A DNA stretch of 64,000 bases from Rhynchobatus australiae (lineage: Eukaryota). The DNA lies in NCBI GenBank assembly GCA_034780895.1, contig JAUZTB010000065.1:21348545-21412544 (forward strand), given 5' to 3'. Positions 26,277-59,476 of this stretch are shown piece by piece; position 1 is the stretch's first letter; the number at the start of each line of letters is the position of its first letter. Under the pieces are notes generated by a model. The model searched no databases, was not told where the DNA came from, and worked only from the letters and a program-made list of their open reading frames with translations. The position numbers and the translations under genes were made by a program.

Positions 26277-26327
26277 AAAGCTGAAACCACAGGAGCAAAA
26301 AAGCCCAGAGGTAGACCAAGAAAAAGG
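26277..26327 (+). CDS. HMGA1: Second HMGA AT-hook exon (HMGA2-exon-3-like): KAETTGAKKPRGRPRKR
   Basis: Acceptor TTCCAG|AAA, donor AGG|GTAAGG, 51 nt, phase 0/0, open frame. Closely resembles human HMGA2 exon 3, KAEATGEKRPRGRPRKW. Not in the ORF track in this frame. The gene symbol is provisional. Confidence 0.85.
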
Positions 26328-27060
26328 GTAAGGATTTTGTTTTAATGCAGGAGCATTTCTACACTAACAGCATCTTCTTGTCTGTTTTTAAAAAAAAAAC
26401 ATTGTTTTAACTCACTTGGGTACTGTTGTTTTCTTAAAGGCATGTAAGTTTATACTACACCTTCAAAAGTTTAATTTTCCATTGCATGTAGAATAATTCT
26501 TAATACAATGGCACCTGTCATGTAAGGGATGATTTGTTTAGGTATGAAGTTATTTATTACATGTTATGTCATGTCTGCTCTACTTATCACATACCTGCCA
26601 CTTAAGGAAAAAGTGAAAGCAGCTGTGAGATTAACTGAATGGTTAGTTTGATTTAACACAGTCAGGTACTACCACTGGCTAGCAATGAATTGAAGTCAAC
26701 TAAGTTTGTTTAATACTTCTGGCTCATCCTGTTTTCATTTTAGCTACTAATTAACTTGACTTTACTTTATCTTAAAAGTTCCTTTGCTTTCTGGATATGT
26801 TGATTGCTTTTTGCGCAAAGGAATCATTACATGGAACATTTGGTTCCATTTTGGGTATCATGAGTGTCACTTCTGTTCAAAAATGGCATACAAATATGTA
26901 TGCATATACAAAGAGGAATACACAATGGGCAGGATTGTGCTGAGGGTTAAGATAGTAAGACTTACATATTTGCAATTTCTGCAACTTGTAATTCATAAGA
27001 AAAATATGGGATAAGGGTTAAGTGGGATGGGAGGAGAAGATTTATCAATGACAATTCCAC

Positions 27061-27575
27061 CTTGTTTCTATGGCTTCAACTTCATTGCTGGCCATTGCTG
27101 TTCCAGTGTTGGTGAGTACATCGTCCTCCCTGATGGAAGGACAGCCCCCACCTAAGTTAACTGCTGATTTTTACCAACTGTTGTGCTGCACTTTGTTCTT
27201 GAAGATGGAAGTGTGTTCATTTGAGTTTTATACAATCTGTTTGGTTGATGTGCCTTTCATGATGATAAAGCTGTTATTGTGTTGCAGACTGACATGTGGG
27301 TGGCTTTGCTCAGCATTACATGCGAGGTTAGGGATGAAGCTAATGAATATTAGTATGAATGTCATTTTAATAGATATTGTTGATGGATGGATAAAAGCGG
27401 TGTGCTATATTGTGTGTTGCTAGTAATGTGATTGGTGAGCTTTAGTATTTGATAAAACATTTGCTGATCTAGATCATATATCCAGATTTGTGTGGAAGAT
27501 GACCTGGTCATCTCTCTCTTTTCCACCTCCTCCACCAAGACCTATAGAAAATCTTGGAGGCCACGTTCTTCCATG
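27061..27575 (-). mobile_element. PIF/Harbinger Myb/SANT-like (NAIF1/MSANTD-type) gene relic, two exon remnants
   Basis: 27575-27505 reads HGRTWPPRFS../VLVEEVEKRE. 27197-27061 is bounded by AG/GT and reads NKVQHN../QQLT/GGG.P...EDDVLTNTGTAMASNEVEAIET. These match the RAPRFS...LVEEVE.R and K.AHN...TGGG motifs of this family. Frameshifted. Confidence 0.65.
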
Positions 27576-30500
27576 TAATGCCATTGTTGCAGCAGAACAT
27601 TTTCCGCTGTCTGCCAAATATTCTCAGAATCTGGGGGTCATTTGCAAATTATAGTAACTTGTTATTGCTACTATAGTCACTAACTGGAACCACTCCTGAC
27701 CGCTAACCCGAATTGCTCCTGACAAGTTGAAATTAAACTGTAAGTGAATTGTTCTTTTTCTTGCACTGAACATCCTCTTAGGCTACAAAGCCGCACAACC
27801 ATTTAGTTTTATACTGTTACGTTGGGTCTCATGCTACAAATGAGGACTAATCTGAAACTTGCATGATGGGATACATGGTGTACAGTTGTGGATCAGATGC
27901 CTTTTGTTTAGTGAAGGCGTTGAGCTCTTTAGGACAATAGGATCTTAAAAGCAATACAATGATATTTCACTATTTAATGAAACTTGAAGGACAGAAATTG
28001 CTGGTGTAGGGAGAGAACCAGGAGTCAGTTGAACTGGGTGAGACCCATGAGACAAGAAGAATATTTAAAGAAATTACCTAAAAATTGGATGGAGATGAAG
28101 GAAGAAAAGGAGCTTTATCCCACACAATGGTGACCGAACGAAGGATATTAAACATTTGGTATAATTGTCGATTGATATTTTGCATCTGAAATTCAATTGC
28201 AGGATGTTGTAACAGAATTTCTGTAGCGAACCGATCATGTTACCATTTTAGTCTTGAAGTTAGAAGTTTAGCTTCCAAGTGCTCCATTTATCTGATGTGC
28301 TAACAGATACCTGGAATCCAATTTCCCAAAATTCACTTGCACGTCTATGGTCCAGATAGACCACTTGTGCTGAAGCAAGCCTCCACGTTGAATGTGAGGC
28401 CCGCTTTGGGGAAACAAATGGGATCTGCCTGAGTTGGTCCCTGTATGTAGCTGCAGATAACCAAATGCAGGTAGGTGTATTTTCATTTAAAACGTTACTC
28501 CTAACTGTGACTTTCCCTCTGGGTACCTTGCTATCTGACGGCAAACCCGTTGCTAAATCATCCTGACAGTTAATCATAATACCCACCTTTTGCTGACCTA
28601 ACCTGGTTCTCAATTTCGTTCTCTTGCTGTCTGCATTCTCTCAAGCCTTTGTCAACTATCACTGCCATCCTGACCCCTGGTAGTAATGTCAGCAGGTCAG
28701 ATGTGCAGGTTTCTATTGCATATGATGCCTGGGACATCTTGTACTATATAGAGTGTTGCAGTAGATTATCCTTGCACAAAAAAAAAGTATTGGTCTGTTG
28801 CCTATACATGGAAATGTGCCTTTACCATGGAAATCCCATTCCTGAACTTGGATTATTTTGTCTTGTGTATGTGGCTTAGTGAGCCCACTTTGCAATTTTT
28901 CTTATTGCTGACTTCAAAATTAAAATACACATCTGTTTCACTGTTGTAATTCTTTTGTGAATTAAACTTGCGTAGTGCAAAAAGCTTGAAGATAGATGTG
29001 ATAATGCAAGTGAAACTAATTGTATTGGTGAGTTGCTTTTTGGAACAAAATACCCTCCCTCTGGAAGAACTGACTCGATGACGCTGCTAATCTCTGATCA
29101 CTTAGAAAGCTGGGGACTATCAGTAAACTTTCTTCTTTGTTCTAAGCAGTGACTTCGTTACCAGCCATAATGTTATAGCTGTAGCGTTGCATCTTAACCA
29201 CCCACCACGTATGCTGACATAGGTTGGATAAGGATAAGTGCTTCAAGAATATAAAAAGAGAAATACAAACTGGTATTTGATTGTTGAACAAGTAGTAATG
29301 CATCATGGTAAATTAATACCCCGTAGTTTTAAAAATGAATGTTTCCTAGCCTGCTTCTGTGTTGGGCTGTTAACGGAACAGGTCAGTGCCAATCAAATTT
29401 GTAACCAGTGATCTACCNNNNNNNNNNNNNNNNNNNNNNNNNNNNNNNNNNNNNNNNNNNNNNNNNNNNNNNNNNNNNNNNNNNNNNNNNNNNNNNNNNN
29501 NNNNNNNNNNNNNNNNNAAATTTGTAACCAGTGATCTACCACCAGCAGCAGTTCTGGTGGGTGGAGCAGTAACTTACTTGCTGCATGTTGCATGAGGCAG
29601 TTGTTGATGTGGCAGGCTTATTTCAATGGCTCATGCAGGGATCAACCCACAAATCCTTGCAACTGAGAATAAACTGTTCATTGAATAGGGTGGTAAATCC
29701 TGTAATTGACAGAGCCTTCTGTGAAGCAAGGCTTCAGCAATGAAATGGCCAAGAAGCTTTGATAGCTGGCTCATTCACTTCCCTGTTCAGCCATTTATTG
29801 AAATTGTCGAATGCTTTAAAATAAAAACTACTTGCATTGTTTTTAAAAATGTTTTAAAAATTAAATTGTTTATAAAACAAAAGCATTCAGAAACTCAANN
29901 NNNNNNNNNNNNNNNNNTATCTGTGCCAAATTCAACCTTGTTTCTGAATGTTGTACTTCAATTTCATCTCCCTGCATCTATTTATTAAGCCTCTCATCTT
30001 TCTATTGTAGTCTATTTCAAGGCAGCAATCTATGTCTTTCTCCAAAGATTAGGACATTATTGGTAATGGTTTATATGCCTTCAGTCCTCCATCTCAAATT
30101 CTGCAAGTAACGTGTGAGCCCCCCAGATCTGTGAAGTTAAACCCAGTAGTTTCAGTCAAGTATATGTTGAAGGGTTACCACTCACTTGACATCTCTTGGA
30201 AAAACTTGAAACTTCCTGTTGTGTGGAGAGTTGCTATGACTCTCAAAGGCTTTGAGAATCTCTTCCAGCATTTTATTGGTAGGCTTGGTGCAGCAACATC
30301 TCTTTTGTTTTCTCCTTGTGATAAACAATTGCCAACTCAATACAGAGAAAACTTCATGTCCCATGCATTTAGCAGCTTACTTGCTCGAAGTTCAGCTGTT
30401 GAGATGGTGTTACTTGCCTATTCTCCAACATGTAGGTCAATAGTGTACTACACACTGGAAGAGAACCATATCTGGCACTCTGGACATGATTGCATGCCCA

Positions 30501-30984
30501 CTAAATGCTATCTTGATGAGATTATATTTATTTTGATCCAACCATGGATTTGTTGGCACCATTTTTTTTTAGCAGATGGATTCCAAATTGCATATTTTAA
30601 AGATTGCTGTAGGAGAAAGAAGCTTGAAGTGTTTCTCCAAAGCAGGTCAGCATTCTAATCATAACCAGACTAAAGGTCAAAATAATGTGCTAAGGATGCT
30701 GTCTGATAATCATGTTGGGTTATGCTGACCTCATTACTTTACTATTTTGTTTAAAGACTCCTTGTAACGTTCTGTGGGTTCATGTAATAAGGTGTATTTG
30801 AGCTACTTGCATGCCTGCATGGTGGTTGTCCTCCATGCTGACTTTTGAACTTAATGCTTACATTTATTGATCACCAAGCGATAGCAGAAGATGATGCTGC
30901 ATTTCTTTTCCCCATTGTGAGTGATGAAAAATCACAATAACTTTGAGCATCTACACGAGGCTGAAGAATTGAATGTCAGACTGC

Positions 30985-31797
30985 ATTTGTGGAAAAATAT
31001 TGCAAATAACTGACAACAACGTGTCCTTGACATCAAGGTAGCATTTCATAGAATGAGGAATCAAGGCAGTGGAATTTAATTCCTTAAGGTAGTGTCTTTG
31101 GCGTAACTATCAATGACCCTCCTTCCCGTGATATGATCAGAATGGGGTTGTTTGCTGATGACTGCATGATGTTCCATTCCATTTCAACTCCTCAACAAAC
31201 AGGACAATCCATTTCACATGCAACAAAACTTAAACTGTATTCAGGCATAGGCCGATGAGTAGCAAGTAATGCTCATGGCATTACAAAAGGGCGAGACAGT
31301 CACCTCCTCTGGCAAGAGGAAAAAGTCCAACCACCAACCCTTCATATTCATTGGGATTAGCATCTCTAAGTCTATGACCATCAACATCCTGGAGATCATC
31401 ATTGATCATAAATTCAGGTGGACCAGCCATATAAATCCTGTGGCTATAAGATTTGGTCAGAAGCTAGCTATCCTATGTGACTGGCATTGGCTGTGACTCA
31501 CTAAAGGCTTTTTGTCCCGACAGGGAATATTTCAGTGTTTTATGAAATATTTATCTGGTTGAATGCAGTTTTACCAATACTTAGGAAGCTCAAAGCCATT
31601 AGGACAAAGCAGCCTGTTTGATTTCTAGCTCATCAACCGTCATTTACATATATTCCCTCCACCAGTGGAACTTAGTGGCTGCATTATGTACCATCCAAAC
31701 CGATGCTTTGCAGTTACACCTCAGGATACCCCAAAAGCACCTCCCAAACCTGCAAACTCTACTACCAAAACGAACAAGGGGAACAAGCACATGGGAA
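30985..31797 (+). mobile_element. L2/CR1-clade LINE RT region (5' part; continues at 32687)
   Basis: LDIKVAF at ~31026, GLFADDC at ~31146 and INILEIIIDHKFRWTSHIN in ORF 31269-31496. Confidence 0.75.
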
Positions 31798-32680
31798 GTG
31801 AATGTATTGTCACCAAGTTTGTGAATGGCGCGTGTGCGAGTCAGACGAGCCATAAGGAGGATACAGACAGTTTATTGAGAGATATTGGTAGGTTGAGTGA
31901 GTGGGTGAAACGTTAGCAAATTGAGTATAATGTAGAAAAATGTTAAGTTTACTTCTGGAGAGAAAAATTTTAAAAAATAGTATTTAAATGGAGGAAGCTG
32001 CAGCAAAAAGGGATTTGGAGGTCCTCATTCAAGAAACGCACAAAGCTAGCATATAGGTAGAGCAGGTAATCAAGAAGGTTGACAAAATGTTGGCTTTTAT
32101 TTCAAAGGGTTGGGAGTAGAAACAATGGAAGTTTTACTTTGTATGCAAGATAATTCTGAGACCATAACTCGAATTCTTCCTACAATTTTCATCTCTCTGT
32201 TCAAGGAAGGATATATTATTATTGGAAGCAGTGTGGATGAGGTTCACCAGGGTGATCCCATGCATGGAGGGATTGCCCTACTAGAAAAGGTTGAACCAGT
32301 TGGGTATGCACTCACTGAGGTTTAGAAGAATGAGAAGTGATCTTACTAAAATATTTAAGATTCTTAGGGGCTTTCCAGGATAAATACTGAGAAGATGCTT
32401 CCCTTTATGAGAGGGTTTAGGCTCAGAGAGTGTAGTCTTGGAAAAAGAGGTGCCCACTTAAGATTTAAAAGAAATTCTTCTCTCAAGGGGTTGAGTATTT
32501 GAATTCCTTGCCTCAGAAAGCCGTGAAGATTAAATCCTCAATTTTATTCAAAGCTGATCAGTTAGGAAATGAAGTGTAATATTGATGGGGTGGGAAAGTG
32601 CGTTGGAGGAAAGCTGGATCTGCTATGAGCTTTATGGCTTCTGGAGTCGAATGGCCTACTCTGGTCCTATTTATAGTTTT
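31798..32680 (+). mobile_element. CR1 LINE 3' portion inserted into the older LINE
   Basis: KF...DTDSLLRDIGRLSEWVK, EFRRMRSDLTKIFKILRG, and the tail GGAGTCGAATGGCCTACTCTGGTCCTATTTATAG. Confidence 0.8.
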
Positions 32681-32686
32681 ATGGCC

Positions 32687-32898
32687 TTCATCACCTGCAG
32701 GTTCCCCTCCACGTCTCATGGCATCCTAACTGAGAAGCATATCACCATTCCTGCATTGTTCCAAGCTGAACATCCTGCAAGTCCCTACCCAAGAACAATG
32801 TGGAAATACCTCCATTCAGGAAGGCAGCTCATCATCTCCTCAAGGGCAATAACTGCTGGCCTTGGTACTGTTGTCTAAATCCTTAAACAAAAAAAAAA
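32687..32898 (+). mobile_element. 3' end of the LINE that starts at 30985
   Basis: CATCACCTGCAGGTTCCCCTCC resumes after ...CATGGGAA (31797). Ends GAAGGCAGCTCATCATCTCCTCAAGGGCAAT...AAAAAAAAAA. Confidence 0.7.
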
Positions 32899-33114
32899 CA
32901 TTGCAACAGTAACTTTTCCTTGCGATGGTTAAGATGGGTAAGTTTGTACCCAGCGCCTTGGCACCTGCTCCTGATATTAGTTGCAGCTTTCATCTGATTC
33001 CACTGTCTTATTCGAATTTATCCATAGTGTCACCTGGTGGAAAGGGCACATCTCTCTTCCTCCTCAGCTCCTTACCTAGGCCTTCGGTTCAGTTTTCAGT
33101 TACCATCTCCCATG

Positions 33115-34150
33115 TTACATAAGAATGTCAGAATATTAGGAGGAGAAGCAAGAGTAGGTCATTCAGTCCCTCACTGCTATTCAATGTTCATAGTTGATCT
33201 CATTTCTCACTTTCTGTTCTAATACCATAGTTGTTTGGATATTAAGTTAATCAGTCATTGTCTTCGATACTCAATGACTGAGTATCCACAGCCCTCTATG
33301 GTGGGGAATTCCAAAGAGGTGAAGAAATTTTTCTCTCTCCTGCATGGCTGACCTCTTATTTTGAAGCTGTGAACTCTGGTTCCATGGGCCAAATGGCCTG
33401 TTTTCATGCTATATGACTCTGACACTATGACTAAAACTCCAATAATCTGACATCCAATTGTTCAGAACTCCTGATGGTCCACCAGCTGACTTGCTTATTA
33501 GTCAGAAAATGAGCTGATAGTCCATAGTAGCAAGATGTGTTTCCATGCTGTATCTCTCTATGATTCTATGACCATAAACTAGAAGGTATAGGTTTAAGAT
33601 GAGAGGGGGAAAGATTTAAAAGGGACCTGAGGGGTAACTTCTTCACACAGCGTAGGGCATAAATGGAGTGAGCTGCCAGTGAAGGTAAGGTAATGACATT
33701 TAAAAGACATTTGAATAATTATATGAGCAGGAACGTTTTAGAGGGATACTGGCAAATGGAACTAGCCTAGGTGGGCACCCTTGGTCATTATGGATGAGTT
33801 AGACCAAAGGGCCTGTTTCTGTGCTGTATGACTCTTATGACTAAATCCATGTTGACTGTTCAAACCTATTATTATCTTCTTAGTCTCATATTAACACTTT
33901 TTCAGTGCTTCCTCATTTATATGATGTAAGTATGCTGATGATTCCAGACTTTCCTGGACTGCTGTTGGAGTGGTCTAAAGTTTTTTTTTCTGTTTTCTCT
34001 CTCCCTCCTTCCTTAAAAAGTGGTGTTACATCTTCTGCCTTCCAAACTGTGGGTACCATTCTATAATCTATGGAATTTTGGAAGATGACAACCAGTGCAT
34101 TCGCTATCTCCTCAAAACACCCAGGATGTGGTTCTGTTATTTTCCGGGTT
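33115..34150. mobile_element. Cluster: minus-strand CR1 relic containing two or three short plus-strand CR1 3' ends
   Basis: Minus ORF 33913-34164 has EEIANALVVIFQNS...WKAEDVTPLFKEGGREK. Plus-strand tails ending GGCCTGTTT..TGCT.TATGACTCT lie at ~33385-33432, ~33535-33572 and ~33575-33843. Confidence 0.75.
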
Positions 34151-35304
34151 TGGATGCCTTCCACAATGCATTCGGTTACTTTCTTACAGCCATAATGCCA
34201 ACAAGAGGCAAAGGCTACCTTTTAAGTAACATTGACTGGGTGAAGTGGTGCTAATCACTCTCCAGTTTGGTCGTCCTGCTGTGCATGCACTCATTCAACA
34301 TCATCGTTAGTGCTGGCTGCATGCTGAAATCATTTAAATGAGGTGGCACCACAAGCTTGGCATACTGCCTGCATCTGAAGCAAAGGGCACATTAATAAGT
34401 ACTGCGATTCCCTTGCCAATTCAGGAGTCAATTTTGCCCCCAGACTCAGAGAGGGGGCCTACATAGGACATCAGTTTACAAAGTTTCAGTTAAAAAATCA
34501 GTTTGGGAACCTCTATGCTGGAGTAAGAATAATGTATGGTGTTATTCTTAACTATTCTTTACAGTTAGCATATTTGGTAATTAAAACAGATCCAAATTCC
34601 TGTTCTGCTACTGTTCTGCTAACTCTAAGCATGACGATCCTACTTTCCACTTTCAAGCTAATCAGCAACCACAAAATTGTGAGGAATGTTTTTTAGGAAG
34701 TAACTGAATTATAATCCTTTTGGCAAATCTTAGCTTGTGACCATTATGCAGCACTGTTGTGGAGTCCTCAAAGTTTCGGGATGAGTACACCTGCAGAATA
34801 GAGTCAGCTACAATTAGGAAAGCACACTAGGACTCTGAAGTTACCAGGTGTTCTCTGAAGACAAAGGGGAAAAATTGTCTGACTGCCCTATGGATAGATA
34901 TCGGCTTGTTCTGAGCAATTGTTTAATGTCACAAGTGCCTCAAGCAAATTTAAACTCCTTTTTTTAGTGCAGAAGCTGATGTAGGTCAGTAAGGAACCAT
35001 GGTATTTATAGAATTTTATGGCACAGTTGAATGTTATATTCTATTTATAGAATTTTATGGCACTGCTGCTATGTCGTCTCACTGAAGGAGTAATCCATTT
35101 ACTCCCATTCCTCTGCCCTTATCAATATTTTTTTTTGCCTGTTTACCACTTCTCTTTAAAAGCTCTTAGATTCTGCTTCCCTGACTGTTCTCTTGACCTG
35201 CTTGACTTTTCTGATGATCTTACAATTTGTATTCTGAGTGCTGACCTGCCAAGAAGTGGAAATACATTTTCTTCGTTTACTAAGTAGATGCCTCTCATCA
35301 TTCT

Positions 35305-36265
35305 AGAACCATAGAAAACTACAGTACAGAAAACAGGCTATTTGGCCCTTCTAGTCTGTGCCAAAACATTATTCTGCTAGTCCCATTTACCTGGACCCAG
35401 CCCATAACCCTCCAGACCTCTCTCGTCCATGTATTTATCCAATTTACTTACATCAGGTGGCAGCCTGTTCCACACTCCCACCATTCTTTGAGTGAAGATG
35501 TTCCCCCTAAACCTTTCCCCTTTCACCCTAAAGCCATGTCCTCTCATACTTATCTCTCCTAATCTAGGTGGAAANNNNNNNNNNNNNNNNNNNNNNNNNN
35601 NNNNNNNNNNNNNNNNNNNNNNNNNNNNNNNNNNNNNNNNNNNNNNNNNNNNNNNNNNNNNNNNNNNNNNNNNNACTTTCTGTTTCTTACATCGGTCTGC
35701 TATCTCCCTACAGATTTGTTCCTCCAATTCTCTCTGACTATTGGGCGGTCTATAATACAACCCTATTAATGTGGCCACACCTTTCCTTTTCCTCAGCTCC
35801 ACCCATATGGCCTCTGTAGACGAGCCCTCCAAGCTGTCCTGTCTATGCACAGCTGTGATCTGTTCCCTGACCAGTAATGTCTCTCCTCCCCCTTTCATCC
35901 CTCCCCCTCTATCACGTTTGACACAACGGTAGCCCAGAACATTAAGCTGCCAGTCCTGCCCCTCCTGCAATCATGTCTCACTAATAGCAATAACATTGTA
36001 ACCCCACATGCCAATCCATGCCCTAAACTCATCTGCCTTACCTATAATACTCCTTGCATTGAAATAGATGCACCTGAGAACATTACTATCACGTATAAAC
36101 CTTTGATTTCTGTCCATACCTCGCATGACCATTTTCCTCCTCACTATCTTCTCTATCACTCTGGCTCCCCTCTCCCTGCAGATCTAGTTTAAACCCACCA
36201 GAGCAGCACTAGCAAACCTACCCGCAAGTATGTTAGACCCCTCCAGTTCAGATGCAAACCATTTC
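35305..36265 (-). mobile_element. CR1 LINE with ORF1 esterase C-terminus, ORF2 APE endonuclease and 3' tail; the middle is hidden in a gap
   Basis: GLHLNWRGSNILAGRFASAALVGLN* (SGNH-esterase end, ~36260-36184), CIYFNARSIIGKADE...IAISET*, and EAIWVELR...IGLYYRPPNS. After the 100-N gap come the CR1 3' end and tail at 35305-35574. Confidence 0.92.
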
Positions 36266-38781: not shown

Positions 38782-40489
38782 TCTCAATAAACAGTTGTAG
38801 TGACAAACAGCGTAGAGAAAAGGCCCTTCATCCATCAAAGCTCTTTTTCACACATCTTGTGAGCTCTTGAAATTACTTTCTACTTTGATTCGTATCTTGC
38901 ATTGTCTCCCACTTGGAAGTCAGTCTGCTGTCACCTCCTGCCAAATGCAGCTGACCAGAACTCAAGTCAGCCTCCCAGCCACACAATTCAATGGAGATTT
39001 TATTAGGCTGCATCACCTAGAAACAAAACATATCTGCATTTGTTCCATTAAAGTCATTATTAAAAATTGTAATCCTTAGGCACCATTTTAAAATGGTGCA
39101 GGGACAAGTGGAGCACTGTTGTAACATTTCTATTTGAGAGCAAGTGATTTTCTAGGCCACTGTATGAGAGCAAGATTTTAGTTCAGTGACTTGCAAATTT
39201 GCTCCCTTAAATGGAAACCTGTAGTCATGTTCTCACTGCTAATATTCAGGCTCTCAGGTTTCTATTTGTTTTAGGAATTTACTTGTTCTGTATTAACAAA
39301 GCCTATACCCCTTTCTTCCCATTACCCATGACAGGCTAGAGAGGGCATCGATGGTGATGGAGCTGAGGGAGATGGAGTAGGGAAGCAGGCAGAAACTGTC
39401 AAATAGTGAAATTGTCCATCTTGCCTTTACATTACCAACAGGACATGTTGTGATTGTATTTGAATGCTGCTTCTACTGTCCACTGTTAGGAGATGGAAAC
39501 TCCAAGGGATAAATGCCCCTTCTTAGGCTCTCTGTGGGCCAGATGCAGCAGGATCACACATCTGGGTTCTGAACATTCTTTGGCCCATCTGATTTCACTC
39601 TTACTGCCTGCACCCAGGTTTCCAGTCATCAATGTCTGCCAACCTTAATCTGCCATTAGCTCTCGTGCCTTCTCCCCCCCCCCCCCCACCACCTCCCATT
39701 TTCCACTACAATATCACTTCTTCCTTCTGTTCCCTGTTGCATTAAGATTCTTGACCTTGCCTCCTCTCAGCACTAATCACCAGACTTGTGGCTGGAGCTT
39801 TCTAGCACTGGTTATCCAGCTTGGCTGCAGGCCAGCCGGTTAATTCGGTGAGCAGCTTGGCAAATAATGCACCCAAGAAATATATTGAGGACCTGCTGCT
39901 TAGGTTATTAGGACTTCCATGTTCTGGTCCTACTCCCTGGCATCTTTTTGGCTTCCCCTTAAGTTTCAGAGCCTGCTTTTTAAAAAGGAAATTAAATTGA
40001 GCAAATTTTATTATTGGCTAAAGTTTTCAGTTATTAAGACAAACAGAATTAAGAAGTTAGATTTGTTAGATAAATACATCATGTACTTTAATTCTGCACC
40101 ATGCAGAGCAGGGCCAGGCTGCTGCTCAGCCCTTGGCCTTCACTACATGTGTTCACTTCAGCTGAGACAATTGTCTTCTGCATAGCTTTGCAAGAAGTCA
40201 TTTTTAAGAGGTTTCCTGGCACTGATCATTTTTCTGTGTCTAGAAATTAAGTGAAGTTTAATTGTTTTGAATGTGATCGAAGTACCTCTGTCACTGAAAT
40301 ATCTTGTTGATATTTATTGTTTAGGTTGAGTGAGGCATTACTGATAGCATGGCAATTGTAGCCTTAGCTTCAGTCACGACAAGCAGAAGAGAGACTAAAG
40401 GAGTTGGGGAGAAGTGCATGGAAGCATTAGTTCTTTTCATATTAGTGAAAATGCTCAATCTATTACCTGTTGAAGCAAGTATAATCAAA

Positions 40490-43354: not shown

Positions 43355-43470
43355 AAATCACAAAAAACTGCAGAAACCTTCAGGCTGAAAGTGTTTGACC
43401 GGAAATATTAACTGTTTCTTTTTCATGTCAGATGCAGCCTGACCTGCTGAGTGTTTCCAGTATTTTTTTT
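43355..43470. repeat. Degenerate relative of the palindromic repeat family
   Basis: CAGATGCAGCCTGACCTGCTGAGTGTTTCCAGTATTTT arm. Confidence 0.6.
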
Positions 43471-48674: not shown

Positions 48675-51077
48675 NNNNNNNNNNNNNNNNNNNNNNNNNN
48701 NNNNNNNNNNNNNNNNNNNNNNNNNNNNNNNNNNNNNNNNNNNNNNNNNNNNNNNNNNNNNNNNNNNNNNNNNNNNNNNNNNNNNNNNNNNNNNNNNNNN
48801 NNNNNNNNNNNNNNNNNNNNNNNNNNNNNNNNNNNNNNNNNNNNNNNNNNNNNNNNNNNNNNNNNNNNNNNNNNNNNNNNNNNNNNNNNNNNNNNNNNNN
48901 NNNNNNNNNNNNNNNNNNNNNNNNNNNNNNNNNNNNNNNNNNNNNNNNNNNNNNNNNNNNNNNNNNNNNNNNNNNNNNNNNNNNNNNNNNNNNNNNNNNN
49001 NNNNNNNNNNNNNNNNNNNNNNNNNNNNNNNNNNNNNNNNNNNNNNNNNNNNNNNNNNNNNNNNNNNNNNNNNNNNNNNNNNNNNNNNNNNNNNNNNNNN
49101 NNNNNNNNNNNNNNNNNNGATTCCCCCTGTGCCCCATACTTACTTGGTTCAGTTCGAGGGAGTGAACTTCCTGACTGCAAGTGTCTTGGACTCCATGGTG
49201 CCAGAAGCTTAAGGTACATGTATGTGGCCCAGTACAATTTCTGCCCATGGAATTCCTGACAAAGCATTTGACAGATGGCAGGGTCATGCCCCCTACTCTA
49301 CTATCAAGCCTTTGAAATGCTTCTGAATGTTCCTGAATGAATCATTCAAAAACAATTAATTAAATCATTAAAATTAAGTTATTGTAAATAAATAAAATTA
49401 CTTGAAATTATACCAAGCACTATTTTGCAGTAATGCTTTTAATTATTTGAAAAAATGTAACTTGCATTTTCCTTGCCCATCTTCCTCACGGCTGTACAGT
49501 CTCTATTGAAATAAATGGGATAGGTGATCCGGTATCAGATCTAACTTGGTGCAGAGTCCCAAAGCAGATTCTTCAGTGTAAGTACTGGAGAACCTCCGCA
49601 AGCTCCTGCAGTCTATTTGGTGGAGCATATTGACAGATTTGTCTGCTAGAATCTATCAGCAGGTTCAGAGCTCCCAACTTTGGGTGGGCTTGTGCTGAAA
49701 GTACTGAACTACTTGCCTTTTTGGAGAAACTGCCAGCATCTCCCAGCAAGATTCAATCCATTTAGATTCTCATACAGGAGCAAAATTAAAAGAGGAAGAA
49801 GATGTACATATATCATAATGTTTGGGGCGAATTTCAAAATGCATATTACTAAGGAAACAAAAGGGGGAAGTGGTAAGAACAGGAAAAGTGAAAGATAAAA
49901 TTAAATATTGTGGTTTTGTGTTAGTTTCCTTGTGGTTTAATGGATTTGAGCTTTGCTTCAGGTGAAAGGTGATCATGGTCTTGATTTATACCTGGGGCAT
50001 TGCAGGTAGCTTCCCTCTGTCCAGACACTGGCTGCAGAATAGCCTAATTCCTGCATTGTTCTTGTGCTGTTTTGAAAATAAAATAGAATTCTGATAGCTT
50101 CTCCAGTGCTTTTTGCAATTGTCTTATCACCTGCTGTTGTAAATTGTTCTGTCCAATACTTCTGTCTCAGAAATTGAAACAATAATTTTGTATCATTCTA
50201 GAAATGTGGCCAAGCACNNNNNNNNNNNNNNNNATATTTTGAGTGCTCATGAAATTATTGTTAAACCTGCCATACCTTTTCATATTTGGATTATTGATGC
50301 TATATCACTTAATAACTGGTAGTTTCTTCTCAGTAGTTTGAACATATTCATTAGAAGCATCAGGGTTCCATGATTTAGTTCTAATTTGCAAAATGCAGCC
50401 AATTAATTTCCACAGGACTTTTGTTCAGGAGGCAAGTATTTAGTGCACTCCATACTTTATAGTCTACATTAAAATGTTACATTCAGAATTATGTTATACC
50501 TGCCACATTTCTCTTGCCCTTCTTCTGATCTAATGCCATCATTTCACAGGTGACAATTACAACAACCTTTGTAGTGTCCTGACTAAAGTGCCTATTGCAT
50601 CTTCCTCTTCTCGTGCTAGTTCAAGGACTTTCTTGACAGTCATTCATCTTGTTTAACTGATTTTTCACATGGCTTATAAAGCCATTGTTCAGTTATGTCT
50701 ACACTTTAGTGCTCAGGGTCTAATTTTCACATCCAATCAAAGTTGTTACCGCATTAAAGCATTGTACTTAGTTGAACTCTTTTTTTTCTCTCCTTTTGGC
50801 GACAGCAAGACCGGGTCAGAGGAAAACAATATTGCCATGGTGAGCCGGCTTTTAAAAGAGCCACTGTACAAATTCATTTGCAGGTTAGAAATTCTGAATT
50901 GGAACTCATTTAGATTTTCAATGTAATAAATGTTACCAGCTTTTTATATAATACAAAAGCAGTAAAGGAAAGGGGCTTCATTGAATAGGGCTGATCACAC
51001 TTGGAGCAATGCAAAATAACTGTGTTTCAGTGATGCCTATCACATAGGTTTCACACAGAAATAAGCCCTTTGGCCAA

Positions 51078-51740
51078 CCATGTTCATAGTTCCCTGAAAG
51101 TGGCAACACAGGTATGCAGGGTGGTGAAGGAGTTTGGCACTCTTGCTTTCATCGGTCAGAGTATTGAGTACAAGAGGTGGGATGTCATGTTCCAGCTACA
51201 CAAGTCCACATTTGAGTTTTGTGTGCAGTTATGGTCACTGAGCTATAAGAAGGATGTCATTAAGCTGGAAAGGGTGCAGAAAAGATTCACAAGAACATTA
51301 CCAGGACTGAATGGCTTGAGTTACAAGGAGAGACTGGATAGGCTTGGACTGTTTTCTTGAAGAATACGAGGCTGAGGGGTGACCTTAGAGGTTTAGAAAA
51401 TCATGAAAGGGCACAGACAAATTGAACGGTCAGTCTTTTTCCCAGGGTAGAGGAGTCTAAAACTAGAGGGTGTCGATTAAAGGTAACGGGAAAGATTTAA
51501 AAAGGTCCTGAGGGGCAAATTTTTCCAAACAGAGGATGGTGGATATATGGAATGAAGTGCCAGAGGTAGAGGCAGGTACAATTACAATGCNNNNNNNNNN
51601 NNNNNNNNNNNNNNNNNNNNNNNNNNNNNNNNNNNNNNNNNNNNNNNNNNNNNNNNNNNNNNNNNNNNNNNNNNNNNNNNNNNNNNNNNNGAGGAAGCTG
51701 TAGAGGCAGGTACAATTACAATGCTTAAAAGCCTGGATTA
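51078..51740 (+). mobile_element. CR1/HER1 LINE 3' portion
   Basis: VHSSLKVATQV...LAFIGQSIEYK...KLERVQKRFTRTLPGL...RLDRLGLFS in ORF 51070-51360. Confidence 0.9.
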
Positions 51741-54700
51741 AAAAAAATTGCAATTACAAAATCAGGAATAGAGGTTGAGTAAAGGAAGCAAAAGCTGATA
51801 TCATTACAGCCACAGGGATTATTGGAGAAGGATATGATTGATTGATAGGCTGCCAATCATAATTTTAAGCTATGTTTGGAATTACAAGGTTTTTAAGGCA
51901 GTTGACTGATGTATCTGAGCAAATTCAAGTGAACCCATAGGTTACATGTGACTTCTTTGCATTAATCTTCAATCTAGCTGACAACATCCAGTTTATAAGT
52001 TATGGAGTTGATTCTGATGTTATAACTGTCAAAGTTTTTGCAGATGTAGGGGAAGAAATTTGTTCTCAGTTGCTTATGCTAAAGAAGCATAATAGCAACT
52101 CCACTGAAGTTAATGGAACTGAATTTCAGAAGCAGAATATATCATCCAGTCACTGGTATGTATATTACCAAGAACAAATATCTACCCAGTCTTGCATAGA
52201 ATAATACAATTCAAGGCAGATCAGGCCTCCGGTTGCGAGGGTGCTCAAAGAAATGGGACTATGCTGGTTGAGCACTTGGGGTGTGGGATTGTTTCCATTC
52301 ACTGGAGGCAGACCCATACGGTTCCAATATTTAAAAAGGGCAACAAATAAGAATGGAGAAGTTGTATTATTTCCTGAACATTTGGAGATGAGGGTTGGGA
52401 GGGATGTTGGTCGTGAAGAAGAGGAAGAACTCCATACATCTTTATCAACCAGGTTTGACTTACTGCAGTACTGAAGCTGGGGCCAAGCCTCTTGAAAATT
52501 CATATTGGTGTTCAGTAATGTCAGTTAGGAGATAGTAATTGAGTTGGGAGCCAGGGAAGATGCATCTGAATTATGTAAGGTTTGATAGCAAGAGGTTTTT
52601 CTTTGAGAAATATCACGGAAGGTTACAATGAGTTGTTGAAGTGTGGATTAACTTTATTCTAAAGAAAGTTAAATTGATGTAACTAGTAGCATTATATTTA
52701 AAACTGTGTGATAATAAACTTTGTCTCATTGGTATTTTGGTCTCCAGAGAGATGTTAAGTTCACCCTTGGTTATTGGTAAACATTACCTCAGTCTTTCTT
52801 CCTCTCATTCAATCTAGTGTTTGCATTTTTTTTCCTGTTGTGTTTCTTGGGGTTGGCTGATGTTGGGAAAAACATGGGTGGGGTGGGGCGGGGCAGAGCC
52901 TGGTGGTGGGTGGAGGTTCTGATTCTTAGCTCTACCATAAGGGCATAGAGATTCTTGATTCTTGAGGTTAGCTGATCATATCCTGGGTGCCACTACACAT
53001 TTCTGTGCGTGTTACTTATTGACAATAGATTTCTAATTGGAGGAGTAGAAGATGTGTCGATTTTTAGATACATCTTGAATATGTATTATGAGTGTTTGCA
53101 GAATTGTGTGCTGCTTTCTCAAATCTCCGGCAATACTTGATTATTGTGCAAATTCTGTGAGAGTAATGAGGCATCTGACAAAAACAGCTATGTGTTGGGT
53201 GGAGAAATGTAAAGTACCTTGCTTCTTTCTAAGCATATTAAATTGCATCATTTTAACATGGGCACATCAAAGACTTCAGTTCTGTGAGTTCACCATGGCG
53301 TATTACTTTTGTTAAGAAATAAAGATATATAAAGACAGTTGAATAGGGCAGACAAAACAATTAAAGAGCAGATGGCTAAACTTCAAAAAGTTCAGTTTAT
53401 TTATTCACCAATTTAATTTGAAATCAGAAGTCAGTGTAGGAACAAGGAACTGAGAATTTTGTATTTTTTGGCATAAATACATAGATTAGCAGCTGAAGCT
53501 CTCCTTCAGGCCTGGGTATATCAGTGAATACTTGACTGTTGACCTATTGTATGTCCTGTTTTCACTCAGTAAATTTTCTGCATCCGATTCTCTCAAACAT
53601 TGTGNNNNNNNNNNNNNNNNNNNNNNNNNNNNNNNNNNNNNNNNNNNNNNNNNNNNNNNNNNNNNNNNNNNNNNNNNNNNNNNNNNNNNNNNNNNNNNNN
53701 NNNNAACATTGTGCCAAGGAGGAAGTGGCAGTGCTGACTCAGAGTCACATTTGAAATTGACTCATCTGTTTTCCACAAAACTTTAGTTTGAATCTGGCAC
53801 TGATGTCAAGTATTGCAATGTTTTACTATAGGAATCTTCTTAATAAATCTTCCTGGCAAAAGAAATATTGTTAGGAGCCAATGATCACATATACACTGTA
53901 GGCTTCCCTTCAGTGTAAGTGCCATGAACTGAAATCAAGAATTTCTAAAGTGCCTAGATCACACCAATAGTATTTTTCTTCAAACTACTGTTATTGCAAT
54001 GAAAGATTACATCCTCTGTATCTCTATGGGAACAGTGTGTATTTGTAAACCTGGGTCGTGGCTTTTTTTTATCATCATTTGATCGATGTGGGTGGGGAAA
54101 TCCCTGCACATGAGCAATGCCGCTCAGGAGTTATTTCCTGTCCTGCTGAAAGCCTGAAATTAATCATTAAGTGGACTTGAGGGAATGCTGAAAATAGGCT
54201 CCCTGCTGAAGTTGGATCTCTCAACAATTTAAAATAGCCACAGTTCAGATTTGCTGCTCTAGCTTCAATGCTCTGTTCATACTGTGCCAATTCTTCTAAT
54301 TTACTACTTAGGCTGGGGACGTGTCAATAAATTGAGGATGTGCAACTGTTGCAAATTGCAGTCTTAAGCATATTTGTTATTAAAAGTACAACCCTATTGT
54401 CTTACCGCCTATGCATTCTGTTCTGCTGTTGTCAATTGTTAACAACAACATGAAGCCTCAGCAAGTGTGTGTGTGTGGTTTTGTGTATTTTTTTCATAAG
54501 TGANNNNNNNNNNNNNNNNNNNNNNNNNNNNNNNNNNNNNNNNNNNNNNNNNNNNNNNNNNNNNNNNNNNNNNNNNNNNNNNNNNNGGGAAATCTCGGAT
54601 ACTGACCTTCCTTGGGTGAAAGTGGCAGAGGCACAGACAAATCCAGAAAGGGTTAACAAGAGGGGGAGGGGCAGATGTGTTTTATTGGACTGAGACACCT

Positions 54701-55689
54701 TTAAAATGGAACAATTCAACAAACTGAACTTTCAGTTAAGTGTATGGTGCATAGAAAGATGTAAGTCAGGGAGAGAATAAAAATGAAGGTCTCTAATAGA
54801 GTAGGTCACAGGAGCGATTAAAAGCTATTTTTTGGCTTAAAATTGATGAGAGTCTTATCCTTGAAATTCCATCCTTTATATTTGATGCCATTTTAGTCAA
54901 CGAGAGAAGGTACTGCTCCATTCTGGGACAACTAAGATTCGAATGTGCTTTTATCCTCTTTTCCATCTGCTCTGTTATAGCCCATGTTAATCAATTTTTC
55001 AGGGCTGTGGAATATTGCTGAAATTAACTTAAAGAGCTCGAGCAGTTGTTTTCAGGATTTCTAGAAACAATTCTATATTCCTACAGAGGGGGCCTGAAAA
55101 AGAAGCTAGAATTTGCTCCTGCCCAAATAAGACAAACGTAAAATTCTTGCAGGTTTACCCAATAACAAGGGGGAGAGGGGTGCATCATGAAAGAAAATTC
55201 TTAGGAATTCCTCCTTTTATGCCCTTAAAAGCTCTTAAACAGAACGCAAATGAGTTCAGACCTATCCCTTTGACAATTCTAAGCAATTAACAGAACCTAA
55301 GAGAGGATTTGGTTCTTTGTCCAGCATTTGGGAGGATCCATTGTGAATTTTTTAAAGTTTGTCATCAGCCTTCATCTGTCCTGGGACCTTTAGACTGTTG
55401 GGCTCAGCATTGCTCTTCCTTACAAAGGTAACCAACACGTTTCAGCCAGAATTAATATACTTCTATTCCAGAAATACGAATAACCCTGTCCTCATGATTT
55501 CAGAGAAAGTAATAAACACATCCTGTGCCTTTTGACATTAATCTGGTACTTTTGGTTTTATTGCCAATGTCTGCCCATGACCTTGCAACTTTGTGACTTC
55601 TTTTGTACTGTCAGTCGCTAATGTCTTCTATTTCTGTCGCTGGGATTATCATTGGGAATTCCCTTTTGGCTGGGATGATGATCTCCAGC

Positions 55690-56250
55690 AGCTCTAAGCA
55701 TCCTCCTTTGTGGAGTATTTTTCCCTTTTGTCTCCTGGGCACCTTAATGCCACACTCGATCAAATGCTACCTTGATGTTAAGCACCGTCACTCAAATCAT
55801 CTCTGCGATTCTGTTCGTGGTGCATGTTTGGACCAAGGCAGTGATGAGGTCTAGAGCTGAGTAGATTGATGAAAAGTAAACTGGGCATCAGTGAGTAAAT
55901 GCCACTCGATAGCACTGTCACTGAAGGCTTCCTTCGCTTTGCTTAAGATTGGAGGAAACTGATTGGGTAGTATGTAGCTGGAGCTTTTTATGAACAATAT
56001 CTACTGGGTAACTTTCCTCTATGTTAGGTAGATGCCATCATGTAACGCTGCTGGAATAGCTAATTATGGAGTGCAGGTCTTCAGCACCACAGCTGGGATG
56101 TCATCTGGTCCTATAGCCTATGCTGTATCCAGTGGTCTCAAGTTGTTCGTTGATATTACGTGGAATCAATTGAATTGGCTGAAGAAAGTGGTTTCTTTGG
56201 TGGCAATTTCAGGAGGAACCTGAGATGGGTCATATAATCAGCTGGTGGAT
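55690..56250 (-). mobile_element. Old L2/CR1-clade LINE relic (endonuclease-RT linker region)
   Basis: The minus strand gives LDTA*AIGPDDIPAVVLKTCTP*LAIP at ~56132-56052, the K..GPD.I motif. Confidence 0.65.
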
Positions 56251-56561
56251 TATGTGGTCACCTATGACTAAGAATGTAGGAAAGTTAAACTGGCATAAAT
56301 TACCTTTATCAAAATAACACNNNNNNNNNNNNNNNNNNNNNNNNNNNNNNNNNNNNNNNNNNNNNNNNNNNNNNNNNNNNNNNNNNNNNNNNNNNNNNNN
56401 NNNNNNNNNNNNNNNNNNNNNNNNNNNNNNNNNNNNNNNNNNNNNNNNNNNNNNNNNNNNNNNNNNNNNNNNNNNNNNNNNNNNNNNNNNNNNNNNNNNN
56501 NNNNNNNNNNNNNNNNNNNNNNNNNNNNNNNNNNNNNNNNNNNNNNNNNNNNNNNNNNNNN

Positions 56562-56636
56562 TGTATAGATGGTATGCAAGACAAATTTTTCACTGTACCT
56601 CGGTACATATAACAATAATAAACCAATTTACCAATG
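56562..56636 (+). mobile_element. 3' tail of a retroposon whose body lies in the preceding gap
   Basis: TTTTTCACTGTACCTCGGTACATATAACAATAATAAACCAAT resembles the tail of the SINE at 48649-48674 (TTTCACTGTGTGTTTCGATGTACA). Confidence 0.55.
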
Positions 56637-57329
56637 TACCTGCTCTTGTAAACATGATCAAGCTTTGTTTTCTATTTTATACTCTTCTCATTAGTTTCCT
56701 TTACTGCTTTTTATCTGGGGACCTTCAGCTTTAAGCAGTTGGTGTGCTCGCTGGTTAGCTGCTACATTGTAATGTTGCACATCATTTAAGCCCATTGTAT
56801 CACATTGAATAAGGCACAACATTTTCACTCGTTTTTGCAGGGAGAAATATAGTCTTCAGCTCAGCCTTCCATTTGGAGTCTGCCTCCCAGCATTTTTGGC
56901 ATTGTCCTGTTAGTGCTGGTCCTCCCCCAGTGTTTGCACTAGCGTGGACAGCCAGGAAGGCCCTGCTTCCCAACCCACTGACTATCAAAGCCATCACTAT
57001 TGTTGAATGCCTTTCAATTCAGTACCCAAAGATAAAATGAAAATAATTTTTAAGAATTAGAAGACTACACCGCAGACACAAAAACTTTAGAGTTGCCTTG
57101 TTAATTCAAGTGGAAAGCTCAGTGAGGTTTCAGAGTTGCCCAGTTGTCCTGCAGCCCCACTCCGCTGAGTAAAGGTTCGTTGACAGCCCCCTGCTGGGCA
57201 ATAACCCAGTTATGGGCTTATCTGCCAGCAGATCTAAGCAGGTCATTAACTCTTTGTTGGTAGTATATGAAAAGACTGCAGCACTGTAATGGCTTGAGCA
57301 TTGATATTTTCGCTATTATTTCGCCATAT

Positions 57330-58985
57330 AATAACATAGAACAGTACAGCATGGAACAGGCCCTTCGGCCCACGTTGTGCCAACATAACTAATCCCTCCT
57401 ACCTGCAGAATGCCCATTCCTCTCATTCAAGTGCCCATCCAAGCCCCTCTTAATAGCCCCCAATGAATTTGCCTCCACCACCCTATCAGGCAACACATTC
57501 CAGGCATCCATCACTCTCTCAGTGTGTAAAAAAAACGTATCCATCGTGCTGTTCTGAACCTACCCCCTCTCGCCTTAAGTACATGTTCTCTGATATTTAA
57601 TCTCTCAATAATGGGAAAAGATATTGCTTGTCCACCCTATCTGTGCCCCTCATAATTTTATACACTTCCAACAGATNNNNNNNNNNNNNNNNNNNNNNNN
57701 NNNNNNNNNNNNNNNNNNNNNNNNNNNNNNNNNNNNNNNNNNNNNNNNNNNNNNNNNNNNNNNNNNNNNNNNNNNNNNNNNNNNNNNNNNNNNNNNNNNN
57801 NNNNNNNNNNNNNNNNNNNNNNNNNNNNNNNNNNNNNNNNNNNNNNNNNNNNNNNNNNNNNNNNNNNNNNNNNNNNNNNNNNNNNNNNNNNNNNNNNNNN
57901 NNNNNNNNNNNNNNNNNNNNNNNNNNNNNNNNNNNNNNNNNNNNNNNNNNNNNNNNNNNNNNNNNNNNNNNNNNNNNNNNNNNNNNNNNNNNNNNNNNNN
58001 NNNNNNNNNNNNNNNNNNNNNNNNNNNNNNNNNNNNNNNNNNNNNNNNNNNNNNNNNNNNNNNNNNNNNNNNNNNNNNNNNNNNNNNNNNNNNNNNNNNN
58101 NNNNNNNNNNNNNNNNNNNNNNNNNNNNNNNNNNNNNNNNNNNNNNNGATCTATATCACACTGTATCTGTCGCCAGTCTTCTACACTATTCACAACTCCA
58201 CCAATCTTGGTATCATCTGCAAACCTACTAACCCACCCATCAACGTACTCATCCAGGTCATTTATGTACATCACAAACAGGAGAGGTCCCAGTACAGATC
58301 CCTGCGGAAGACCACTACTCACAGGCCTCCAGCCTAAATAAACCCCTTCAACCACCACCATCTGTCTTCTGTGGGCAAGCCAGTTCTGGATCCACACAGC
58401 CAATTCTCCACTGAGCACATGCATCCGAACTTTCTTGATTAACTGATGATGTCGGACCTTGTCAAATGTCTTACTGAAGTCCATATAGATGACATCGACA
58501 GCTTTGCATTCATCAATCTCTCTCGTCACCTTGTCAAAAAAACTCAACCAGGTTAGTAAGACACGACTTGCCCCGCACAAAGCCATGCTGGCTTTCCCTA
58601 ATCAATCCATTGGATTCCAGATGCTTTTATATGCTATCTCTAAGAATTTTCTCCAGTAATTTCCCTACATCTGATGTGAGACTCACTGGTCTATAGCTCC
58701 CCGGATTTTCCCTTGTTCCTTTCTTAAATAGAGGAACAACAGTAATCGCTCGCCAGTCCTTTGGGACCTCACCCATGGTCAAAGAGGATACAAAGATGCT
58801 GGTCAAGGCCCCAGCAATTTCCTCAGTAACCTAGGGTATATCCCATCGGGGCTCGGGGACTTATCCACCTTAACACTGTTTAGGAGACCTAACACTACCT
58901 CCTCCTCGACCTCAAAATGCCCTAACATGTTTCTGCCCTCAATTCCAATTTTTGCATCCTGCATTTTCCTTTCCTGGGTAAATAC
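57330..58985 (-). mobile_element. Relatively well-preserved CR1/HER1 LINE, RT region and 3' end, with an internal gap
   Basis: VKVDKSPSPDGIYPRLL, AVDVIYMDFSKTFDKV, SGLPQGSVLGPLLFVMYINDLD...SRFADDTKIGG, and the tail at 57330-57375. Confidence 0.95.
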
Positions 58986-59389
58986 TGACAACCTCACCCA
59001 CTCTAAATTCATCACTCTTCCCCATAATACTCCTCTCATTAAAGTACAAACACTTCAAACCATTCATCTCAGCACATCTGTTATTAGGAATATGCCTAAT
59101 ACTACATTACCTCACATCAGCCCTCCTGCCTGTTCCCTCACTTACTGACCTATTGTTCTGGTTCCCATCCCCCTGCTGTGGAATTCTCTGCATAACCATT
59201 TTTGGTTGATGCAAACTGTACATGTTAAACTTAATAACATTTTGTTTGCTAAGAGATTACCCAGCATATGACAGTGCAAAGACAAATGTGAGGAAAATGC
59301 ACTTTGATAGTACAAAGTAATGGATTTAAAGGAAAATTCTATTTGCTACTTCTAGTTCTTCTGATTGTAATTTTCATTTTTTTTGGTAG

Positions 59390-59452
59390 GAAAAGGTAGA
59401 GCAGGAAGAAGAAGAGCATGCTTCTCAAGAATCTTCAGAAGAAGCACAGTAA
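59390..59452 (+). CDS. HMGA1: HMGA terminal coding exon, acidic tail: EKVEQEEEEHASQESSEEAQ*
   Basis: Acceptor TTTTCATTTTTTTTGGTAG|GAA, phase 0, TAA at 59450-59452. Resembles the human HMGA1 tail EKEEEEGISQESSEEEQ* and keeps the SQESSEE CK2-site motif. Confidence 0.9.
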   Translation, partial: EKVEQEEEEHASQESSEEAQ

Positions 59453-59468
59453 ATCTGCAAGAGTCTCA

Positions 59469-59476
59469 CTACCTCA
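59469..59476 (+). promoter_or_regulatory. let-7/miR-98 8-mer seed site in the HMGA 3' UTR
   Basis: CTACCTCA, 16 nt after the stop codon. Confidence 0.65.

Follow-up and report, generated by a model that had tools for sequence, protein, structure and literature searches.

An HMGA1-type gene of sharks and rays with a predicted cassette exon for an HMGA2-like fourth AT-hook

A 64,000-nucleotide (nt) stretch of the Rhynchobatus australiae genome (GenBank assembly GCA_034780895.1, contig JAUZTB010000065.1, positions 21,348,545 to 21,412,544 of the forward strand), hereafter the window, holds the 3' half of one gene of the HMGA family on its + strand. Judged by its sequence, this gene is the elasmobranch HMGA1. 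It contains two AT-hook exons, A and B, of which exon B resembles the third hook exon of HMGA2 and is predicted to be a frame-preserving cassette that would switch the protein between three and four hooks. An HMGA1 with an optional HMGA2-like fourth hook is a real and conserved elasmobranch feature, and we consider the window gene very probably an HMGA1 with such a cassette.

A scan of all six frames for the hook core revealed two genuine AT-hook exons, in agreement with other members of the HMGA family, where hooks (a PRGRP core with basic flanks) are encoded one per exon. The visible part of the gene is laid out as follows.

15658-15708, + strand: exon A, third AT-hook of HMGA1 type (ending KKL), AG/GT ends, phase 0
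15709-26276, + strand: intron between exons A and B, 10,568 nt, of which 597 are N
26277-26327, + strand: exon B, predicted cassette, fourth AT-hook of HMGA2 hook-3 type, AG/GT ends, phase 0
26328-59389, + strand: intron between exon B and the tail, 33,062 nt, of which 1,873 are N
59390-59452, + strand: coding part of the last exon, HMGA1-type acidic tail and stop codon, recognised by identity to shark tails

Both hook exons are 51 nt long; they encode KSGGAGGAKPRGRPKKL (exon A) and KAETTGAKKPRGRPRKR (exon B) and have 36 of 51 bases in common, including an exact run of 17 nt. On the acceptor side of exon B, 20 nt are readable, preceded by an N gap. Its final codon is AGG (Arg), where HMGA2 has a tryptophan. 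The tail comprises 20 residues, EKVEQEEEEHASQESSEEAQ, and ends with a TAA stop at 59450-59452; as is usual in the family, the acidic tail and the 3' untranslated region (UTR) share the last exon. An earlier, preliminary description of this DNA had portrayed A, B, the AGG codon, the intron of about 33 kilobases (kb) after B, the tail and a let-7 site accurately, although exon A lies outside the range that it gave. It had also reported no HMGA2-type spacer exon, and our splice-site scan between B and the tail was likewise negative, within an intron that includes the 1,873 N. Since B is joined straight to the tail in all ten elasmobranch proteins that carry A, B and tail, a spacer hidden in an N gap is unlikely, and we rejected this candidate. 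Upstream of exon A there is no further hook exon in 15,657 nt, and that intron thus exceeds 15.6 kb. Hooks 1 and 2, present in the proteins of all relatives, lie beyond the window or within its gaps.

A profile built from the three window frames retrieved five proteins among 217 candidates, all from sharks. Cluster look-ups, together with a search initiated with one four-hook shark protein (best 120 of 474 hits), produced a set of 40 shark and ray proteins. Exon A, exon B and the tail are matched in this order by shark proteins at 76-94% identity (88-94% for exon A against shark residues 63-79, 76-88% for exon B and 80-90% for the tail), so these exons are not chance matches. In form, the window exon B and tail are nearest to those of rays such as Mobula. 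The same gene is found among RefSeq elasmobranch models, for example XP_067913285.1, XP_060701235.1 and XP_062921604.1, with A, B and tail in order and in versions with and without B; these models are automatic only. The label "high mobility group AT-hook 1a" is carried by many of the shark models, and most of those from rays are labelled "HMG-I/HMG-Y-like", while some are uncharacterised. An assembly chimera, which the preliminary description had allowed for, was rejected because the same succession of A, B and tail is seen in many sharks and rays.

The assignment to HMGA1 is based on the agreement of the relatives' N-terminal half, exon A, the tail and the RefSeq names. N-terminal halves, compared in relatives only, show a mean identity of 61-71% (five relatives) to 91 tetrapod HMGA1 rows versus 57-61% to HMGA2, which is represented by a single gecko sequence without a normal tail. 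They align with one one-residue gap against turtle HMGA1 and with three gaps against gecko HMGA2. In a tree of this half built with no outgroup, the branch to tetrapod HMGA1 measures 0.27 and the HMGA2 end branch 0.71. The 20-residue tail has 10-14 identities to each of 19 distinct tetrapod HMGA1 tails. All 28 distinct tetrapod HMGA1 hooks have Lys15, as do all eight distinct versions of exon A. The tryptophan that follows the third hook of HMGA2 is absent from exon B, being replaced by Arg in five and by Lys in one of six distinct elasmobranch versions.

The layout itself is that described for vertebrate HMGA1 of the HMGA1b type, in which every hook has its own exon, the last exon carries both tail and UTR, and there is no spacer (PMC7038092). 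Further likenesses to HMGA1 are the relatives' N-terminus, a third hook ending in RPKK, a tail ending in SQESSEE.Q and the context of a let-7 site. The elasmobranch gene differs from HMGA1 by the extra optional hook exon, by a let-7 8mer near the stop, by introns of 10-33 kb as opposed to about 10 kb for the human locus, and by several alternative last exons in relatives, human HMGA1 being described with one 3' UTR (PMC7038092). With HMGA2 (HMGI-C) it shares the type of exon B, a let-7 8mer about equally far from the stop, and the placing of the longest intron visible behind the B-type hook; tail-less isoforms of relatives end in this intron, as described for HMGA2 (PMC7038092). Unlike HMGA2, it lacks the tryptophan after the hook and the 11-residue spacer exon (PMC7038092) and has exon A in front; the HMGA2 tail ends in SQESAEED (PMC11773362), whereas the window tail is of HMGA1 type. 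A plain HMGA2 locus was therefore rejected in view of the HMGA1-type exon A, tail, N-terminus of relatives and names. Thus, the mosaic HMGA1/HMGA2 identity previously proposed for this gene holds at the level of exons (B HMGA2-like, A and tail HMGA1-like), whereas the gene as a whole is unambiguously assigned by its sequence to HMGA1.

The length of the intron after exon B had been taken as a mark of HMGA2; by our measurements it is a weaker mark than was stated. At 33.1 kb, it is about three times as long as the intron between A and B (10.6 kb) and at most about twice as long as the one before A (more than 15.6 kb). This is far from the dominance of intron 3 in human HMGA2, which accounts for about 110 of 160 kb (PMC7279267), and skate introns are reported to be generally longer than human ones (PMC10115646). 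No neighbouring gene was seen in the 64-kb window; at the level of synteny the orthology to HMGA1 is presumed, the RefSeq names being indirect support for it. The searched files of the ohnologue and proto-vertebrate supplements (PMC4504502, PMC8302630) contained no HMGA entry.

The family has three hooks, whereas the elasmobranch gene encodes four with exon B and three without it. Among the 40 elasmobranch proteins, exon A is present in all and exon B in 21. Ten proteins have the order A-B-tail, 11 continue from A and B into another end, six skip B and join A to the tail, 12 join A to an alternative last exon (exon X) and one has A followed by a short end. A-B-tail and A-tail forms occur together in two Chiloscyllium species, Heterodontus, Mobula and stingrays. 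Mutually exclusive splicing of A and B was rejected, since 21 of the 40 proteins carry both. The form without B has about 99 residues and aligns with tetrapod HMGA1 end to end; inclusion of B yields about 116 residues, places the extra hook 17 residues after hook 3 and changes the number of Lys plus Arg from 25 to 33 and that of Asp plus Glu from 14 to 15. Exon B would be spliced in R. australiae as well. In two sequencing runs that we guessed to be RNA, depth was 1.0 and 0.5 at the exon A bins and 5.88 and 2.93 at the exon B bins, with several neighbouring intron bins at zero; contig depth cannot rank gene parts and a paralogue may add to the depth at B, and nothing is concluded from these values. 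No second hook-3 exon turned up in the 107 listed proteins from outside the elasmobranchs, nearly all of which are tetrapod HMGA1. Only one of these 107, a fragment from a bird, has four RGRP words, and there the additional word follows hook 1.

Some rays depart from this picture. In stingray exon B (P0139, P0140) Ser replaces Arg after the hook core, and exon B is found in none of four Narcine models (P0029, P0141-P0143). Certain rays may have a fourth hook that is weakening, or none.

From its motifs, the gene product is predicted to bind AT-rich minor grooves and to bend or compact chromatin. The acidic tail of HMGA2 has been described to bind the hooks and to inhibit DNA binding (PMC11773362). 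The four-hook form would hold a longer stretch of AT-rich minor groove, bind AT-rich DNA more avidly and be less damped by its own acidic tail.

How did two hook-3 exons of different type come to lie in one gene? Window exon B has 12 of 17 residues in common with the third hook exon of gecko HMGA2, compared with a mean of 9.1 for tetrapod HMGA1 hook 3 and 8.2 for elasmobranch exon A, which supports the HMGA2-like character previously noted. Exon A shares a mean of 10.1 of its 17 residues with HMGA1 and 9 with HMGA2; it was rightly described as HMGA1-like, as was the tail. Lys occupies position 15 in all versions of A and of HMGA1, and Arg occupies it in HMGA2 and in five of six versions of B; position 7 groups A with HMGA1 and position 8 groups B with HMGA2. 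The HMGA2-like residues of B include Arg15 and those at linker positions 2, 5 and 8. These affinities are expressed as column counts, 17 residues being too few for a likelihood tree.

A four-point comparison used 6 rows of A and 7 of B (with the window's own A and B added), 20 of HMGA1 and one of HMGA2. Three of eight exon A versions, in which a ray insertion shifts the register, and eight of 28 HMGA1 hooks that are shifted or aberrant were dropped; three unnamed proteins (P0053, P0081, P0085) are among the rows counted as HMGA1. The sum is lowest (12.5) for A with HMGA1 and B with HMGA2, versus 16.9 for A with B and 16.0 for A with HMGA2 and B with HMGA1. In the same order, the shares of column bootstraps are 93, 0 and 7% with mismatches and 80, 0 and 20% with BLOSUM distance; with either distance, none of 10,000 bootstraps paired A with B. 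The pairing of B with A as a recent duplicate, which the preliminary description had named as an alternative, is thus not seen. Exon B occurs in both sharks and rays, which split about 286 million years ago (PMC10115646); this leaves no room for a chimera and makes a recent duplication unlikely.

A copy of A that arose in elasmobranchs only and came to look like HMGA2 by convergence is unlikely. Such an origin could draw on the short and constrained nature of AT-hooks and on the synonymous codons: where A and B encode the same residue, eight of nine codons are letter-identical, an agreement with a probability of 0.0006-0.003 at saturation, 0.20 at d=0.5 and 0.08 at d=0.75 (neutral distances assumed). 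It conflicts with the complete lack of A+B pairings in the bootstraps and with the extension of HMGA2-like residues beyond Arg15 to the linker. The codon identity leans against a great age of the A/B split in any case.

The UTR adds two predicted let-7 sites to this comparison.

59469-59476, + strand: let-7 8mer, +17 to +24 after the stop (first human HMGA2 site at 21-28)
63188-63198, + strand: second let-7 site, 7mer-m8 at 63192-63198, upstream context as in human HMGA1 with one base missing

The first site was correctly placed just after the stop by the preliminary description. The window as a whole is not enriched in let-7 8mers (four matches versus 1.7 expected, with at least four in 12 of 100 shuffles), and the chance of finding one within 30 nt of the stop is about 3e-4. 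The 4,548 nt after the stop (362 N) contain one 8mer, one 7mer-m8 and one further 6mer. The second site would lie in the UTR; AATAAA signals at 59760, 60842 and 62533 are all upstream of it, and the UTR may extend past the window end. Human HMGA1 is described with one let-7 site (PMC7038092), the sequence context of which is given in PMC8973948, and human HMGA2 with seven (PMC7038092), the first at UTR position 21-28 (PMC9440686), compared with two 7-8mer sites in 4.5 kb here. As a trait of HMGA2, the let-7 site had been read half correctly: its position matches the first site of HMGA2, but HMGA1 has a site too, and the second site here stands in an HMGA1 context. The gene seems to keep one predicted site of each kind. 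A TGCTGCT match was also noticed 31 nt after the second let-7 site (window 63188-63229), with a further one at 63370. We take TGCTGCT to be a seed match of miR-15/16 type, and matches at 61526 and 63484 presumably are of miR-26 type.

The account that we favour as the most likely one starts from an ancestral hook-3 exon of the HMGA2/amphioxus type. On the HMGA1 line, after its split from HMGA2 and before the divergence of cartilaginous and bony fishes, this exon would have been duplicated in tandem. The upstream copy, A, would have diverged to the form that tetrapod HMGA1 retains; the downstream copy, B, would have stayed near the ancestral sequence, lost the tryptophan, turned optional and been lost in the tetrapod line. 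To this account as a whole, with HMGA1 cassette, stem duplication and timing, we assign a probability of roughly 45%.

Amphioxus and hemichordates have been described to possess a single, pre-duplication HMGA with a hook 3 of HMGA2 type, like exon B, followed by Trp, and the amphioxus gene has an HMGA2-like number of exons (Bozzo et al. 2017, as given in PMC7013770). Exon B is therefore of ancestral type under the favoured account as well as under the one considered next. The invertebrate genes differ from the elasmobranch gene by this Trp and, in amphioxus, by the exon number; the parts of PMC7013770 covered here mention no second hook-3 exon.

According to the preliminary description, the pre-duplication gene may already have had both A and B, HMGA2 then losing A and the HMGA1 of bony vertebrates losing B, so that elasmobranch HMGA1 shows the old layout. 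We regard this as possible, though less likely than the stem duplication. It is consistent with the intron data, as the longest visible intron follows the B-type hook, and with the tail-less isoforms of relatives (11 of 40) that end in that intron as in human HMGA2 (PMC7038092). The skate, moreover, is described as slow-evolving, with high retention of ohnologues, and one let-7 site of each kind fits slow evolution under either scenario. The ancestral layout requires, however, one gain and two losses, whereas stem duplication requires one of each. The description of invertebrate outgroups as HMGA2-like (PMC7013770) and the high synonymous identity of A and B, which favours a younger split, also speak for the stem duplication, and the absence of the HMGA2 spacer exon means that the present layout is not simply ancestral. 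A pre-second-doubling HMGA that was a four-hook protein, with an HMGA1-type hook and an optional HMGA2-type hook added by splicing, is possible to the same degree; in that event the HMGA1 and HMGA2 of bony vertebrates would be partitions by reciprocal exon loss, sharks and rays would have kept the undivided state together with let-7 sites of both kinds, and a third HMGA ohnologue would serve as outgroup.

Several points weigh against the favoured account or against the identification beneath it. The unrooted four-point split would be identical if A and B predated the gene duplication, and the let-7 site at the HMGA2 position is a feature shared with HMGA2 that suits the ancestral layout too. 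The exon comparison involves 17 residues, about four informative columns and one HMGA2, that of gecko. In rays the N-terminal margin for HMGA1 is small (61-63% vs 57%), and the outgroup-less backbone tree attaches HMGA2 among the elasmobranch rows. The isoforms are automatic database models for which RNA support was not seen; no splice junction of this species was among the rows listed for read contigs (four of 15 runs, positions 15000-27000, swamped by repeats). The best 120 of 474 hits included no holocephalan, ray-finned fish, coelacanth, lungfish, cyclostome or elasmobranch HMGA2 sequence, and the loss of B is shown for the listed tetrapods only.

The same 120 hits contained no chimaera, skate, sawfish or ray-finned fish protein. 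An annotated four-hook chimaera protein would be expected to rank near the top of the hits.

Other HMGA genes of cartilaginous fishes bear on two further explanations. Supplement 2 of PMC10115646 lists at least two skate genes of the family, LE15845 and LE20664, both automatically named Hmga2. The identifier of LE15845 falls among genes of Leri_19C, the chromosome of Msrb3 and Llph, which bears on the scaffold of the window in no direct way; LE20664 ("Hmga2-1") is on Leri_16C, with a bait at 28.62 Mb, among the identifiers of Fbln2, Sema3g, Tmem43 and Cacna1d; those of Nudt3, Tead3 and Etv7 are far from both (PMC10115646). Skate chromosomes LER16 (1-alpha), LER19 (2-alpha) and LER24 (2-beta, equal to chicken 26) belong to one ancestral linkage group (PMC10115646, Table 3). 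All these placements come from gene identifiers and tables. If HMGA1 lies on the chicken-26 segment, as we assume, HMGA1 and HMGA2 would be sisters from the second round of genome doubling and LE20664 would be a third copy, sister to both from the first round and hence an outgroup. LE20664 is possibly an ohnologue lost in mammals.

HMGA1 might have received exon B from one of its paralogues, either HMGA2 or the third ohnologue, on the chondrichthyan stem, by homeologous exchange, gene conversion or transduction. A single event with no losses would then explain both the HMGA2 likeness and the absence of B from the listed tetrapod HMGA1 proteins, and the skate does possess at least two family members outside the Nudt3 group of gene identifiers. 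We nevertheless consider an import improbable: the 17-nt exact run and the 36 of 51 bases common to A and B suit a local copy, B lacks Trp in all six distinct elasmobranch versions, and tandem exon duplication is commoner than exon import.

Least probable, in our view, is that the window gene is not an HMGA1 orthologue at all and instead represents the third ohnologue, lost in mammals, from the segment of skate chromosome 16. It would then be an outgroup to HMGA1 and HMGA2, from which an ancestral two-exon layout follows. The location of LE20664 on Leri_16C, far from Nudt3, agrees with this, as does the lack of any HMGA gene among the skate identifiers listed near Nudt3; yet the skate tables contain differentially expressed genes and interaction baits only, so that this absence means little. 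The naming of shark orthologues as hmga1a and the N-terminal gaps (one against turtle HMGA1, three against gecko HMGA2) point instead to HMGA1.

Between exons A and B the window contains a further element of the gene.

20236-20586, + strand: exon X, an open 116-codon frame matching an alternative last exon that shark isoforms use after A

The frame aligns without gaps to eight shark proteins at 53-64% identity, while the eight shark copies are 76-99% identical to one another; in several shark annotations exon X belongs to isoform X1. In a substitution-only simulation, a frame would stay open at this divergence with a chance of 7-12%. The bases preceding it in the window are CG instead of AG, so that the acceptor seems to have been lost in this species, and in Narcine the matching frame stops after 55 residues. 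For these two reasons, exon X may no longer be spliced in here or may be decaying in rays. It matched no Pfam family and gave no usable hit in the ESM Atlas. Its AlphaFold model shows a disordered first half and one 48-residue helix (residues 68-115); exon X would replace the acidic tail with a basic patch and a long helix, probably a coiled coil.

The introns contain repeats resembling long and short interspersed elements (LINE/SINE) and many N gaps, and over long parts of the A-B intron the window is collinear with DNA contigs from two related organisms. At 29397-29417 and 29518-29538 an identical short stretch flanks an N gap, which points to contig ends that overlap in a scaffold built from short reads. 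The alternative C-terminus encoded after exon B in a Mobula model has a weak counterpart at 39351-39386 (9 of 12 residues, E 0.5, including a stop), which may be a repeat-derived end within the long intron. An Rfam search of the window gave no match. Used alone as a query, the exon A frame found no homologue; the sole match of a full HMMER scan was an unrelated 675-residue protein with ten hooks, and in the PDB the hits were limited to the HMG-I/Y hook-2 peptide and, weakly, a hook of WhiB7. The Pfam AT_hook model scores above its cut-off for full-length relatives and below it for single window exons.

We found no paper on a four-hook HMGA1 of cartilaginous fishes in searches that were mostly aimed elsewhere and that left subscription journals and bioRxiv supplements uncovered; the four-hook forms are already present, unremarked, in automatic annotation. 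Descriptions of HMGA1 and HMGA2 give both proteins three hooks, and a fourth hook that can be spliced in or out offers a natural experiment on the roles of hook number and charge balance in chromatin binding. An extra exon of HMGA2 type also makes the origin of the difference between HMGA1 and HMGA2 testable, with stem duplication and exon-level partition after genome doubling as the alternatives. These matters will chiefly interest specialists in chromatin and in vertebrate evolution. Exon B is probably the relic of an old exon duplication; that it reflects the ancestral layout is a possible, testable and less economical idea.

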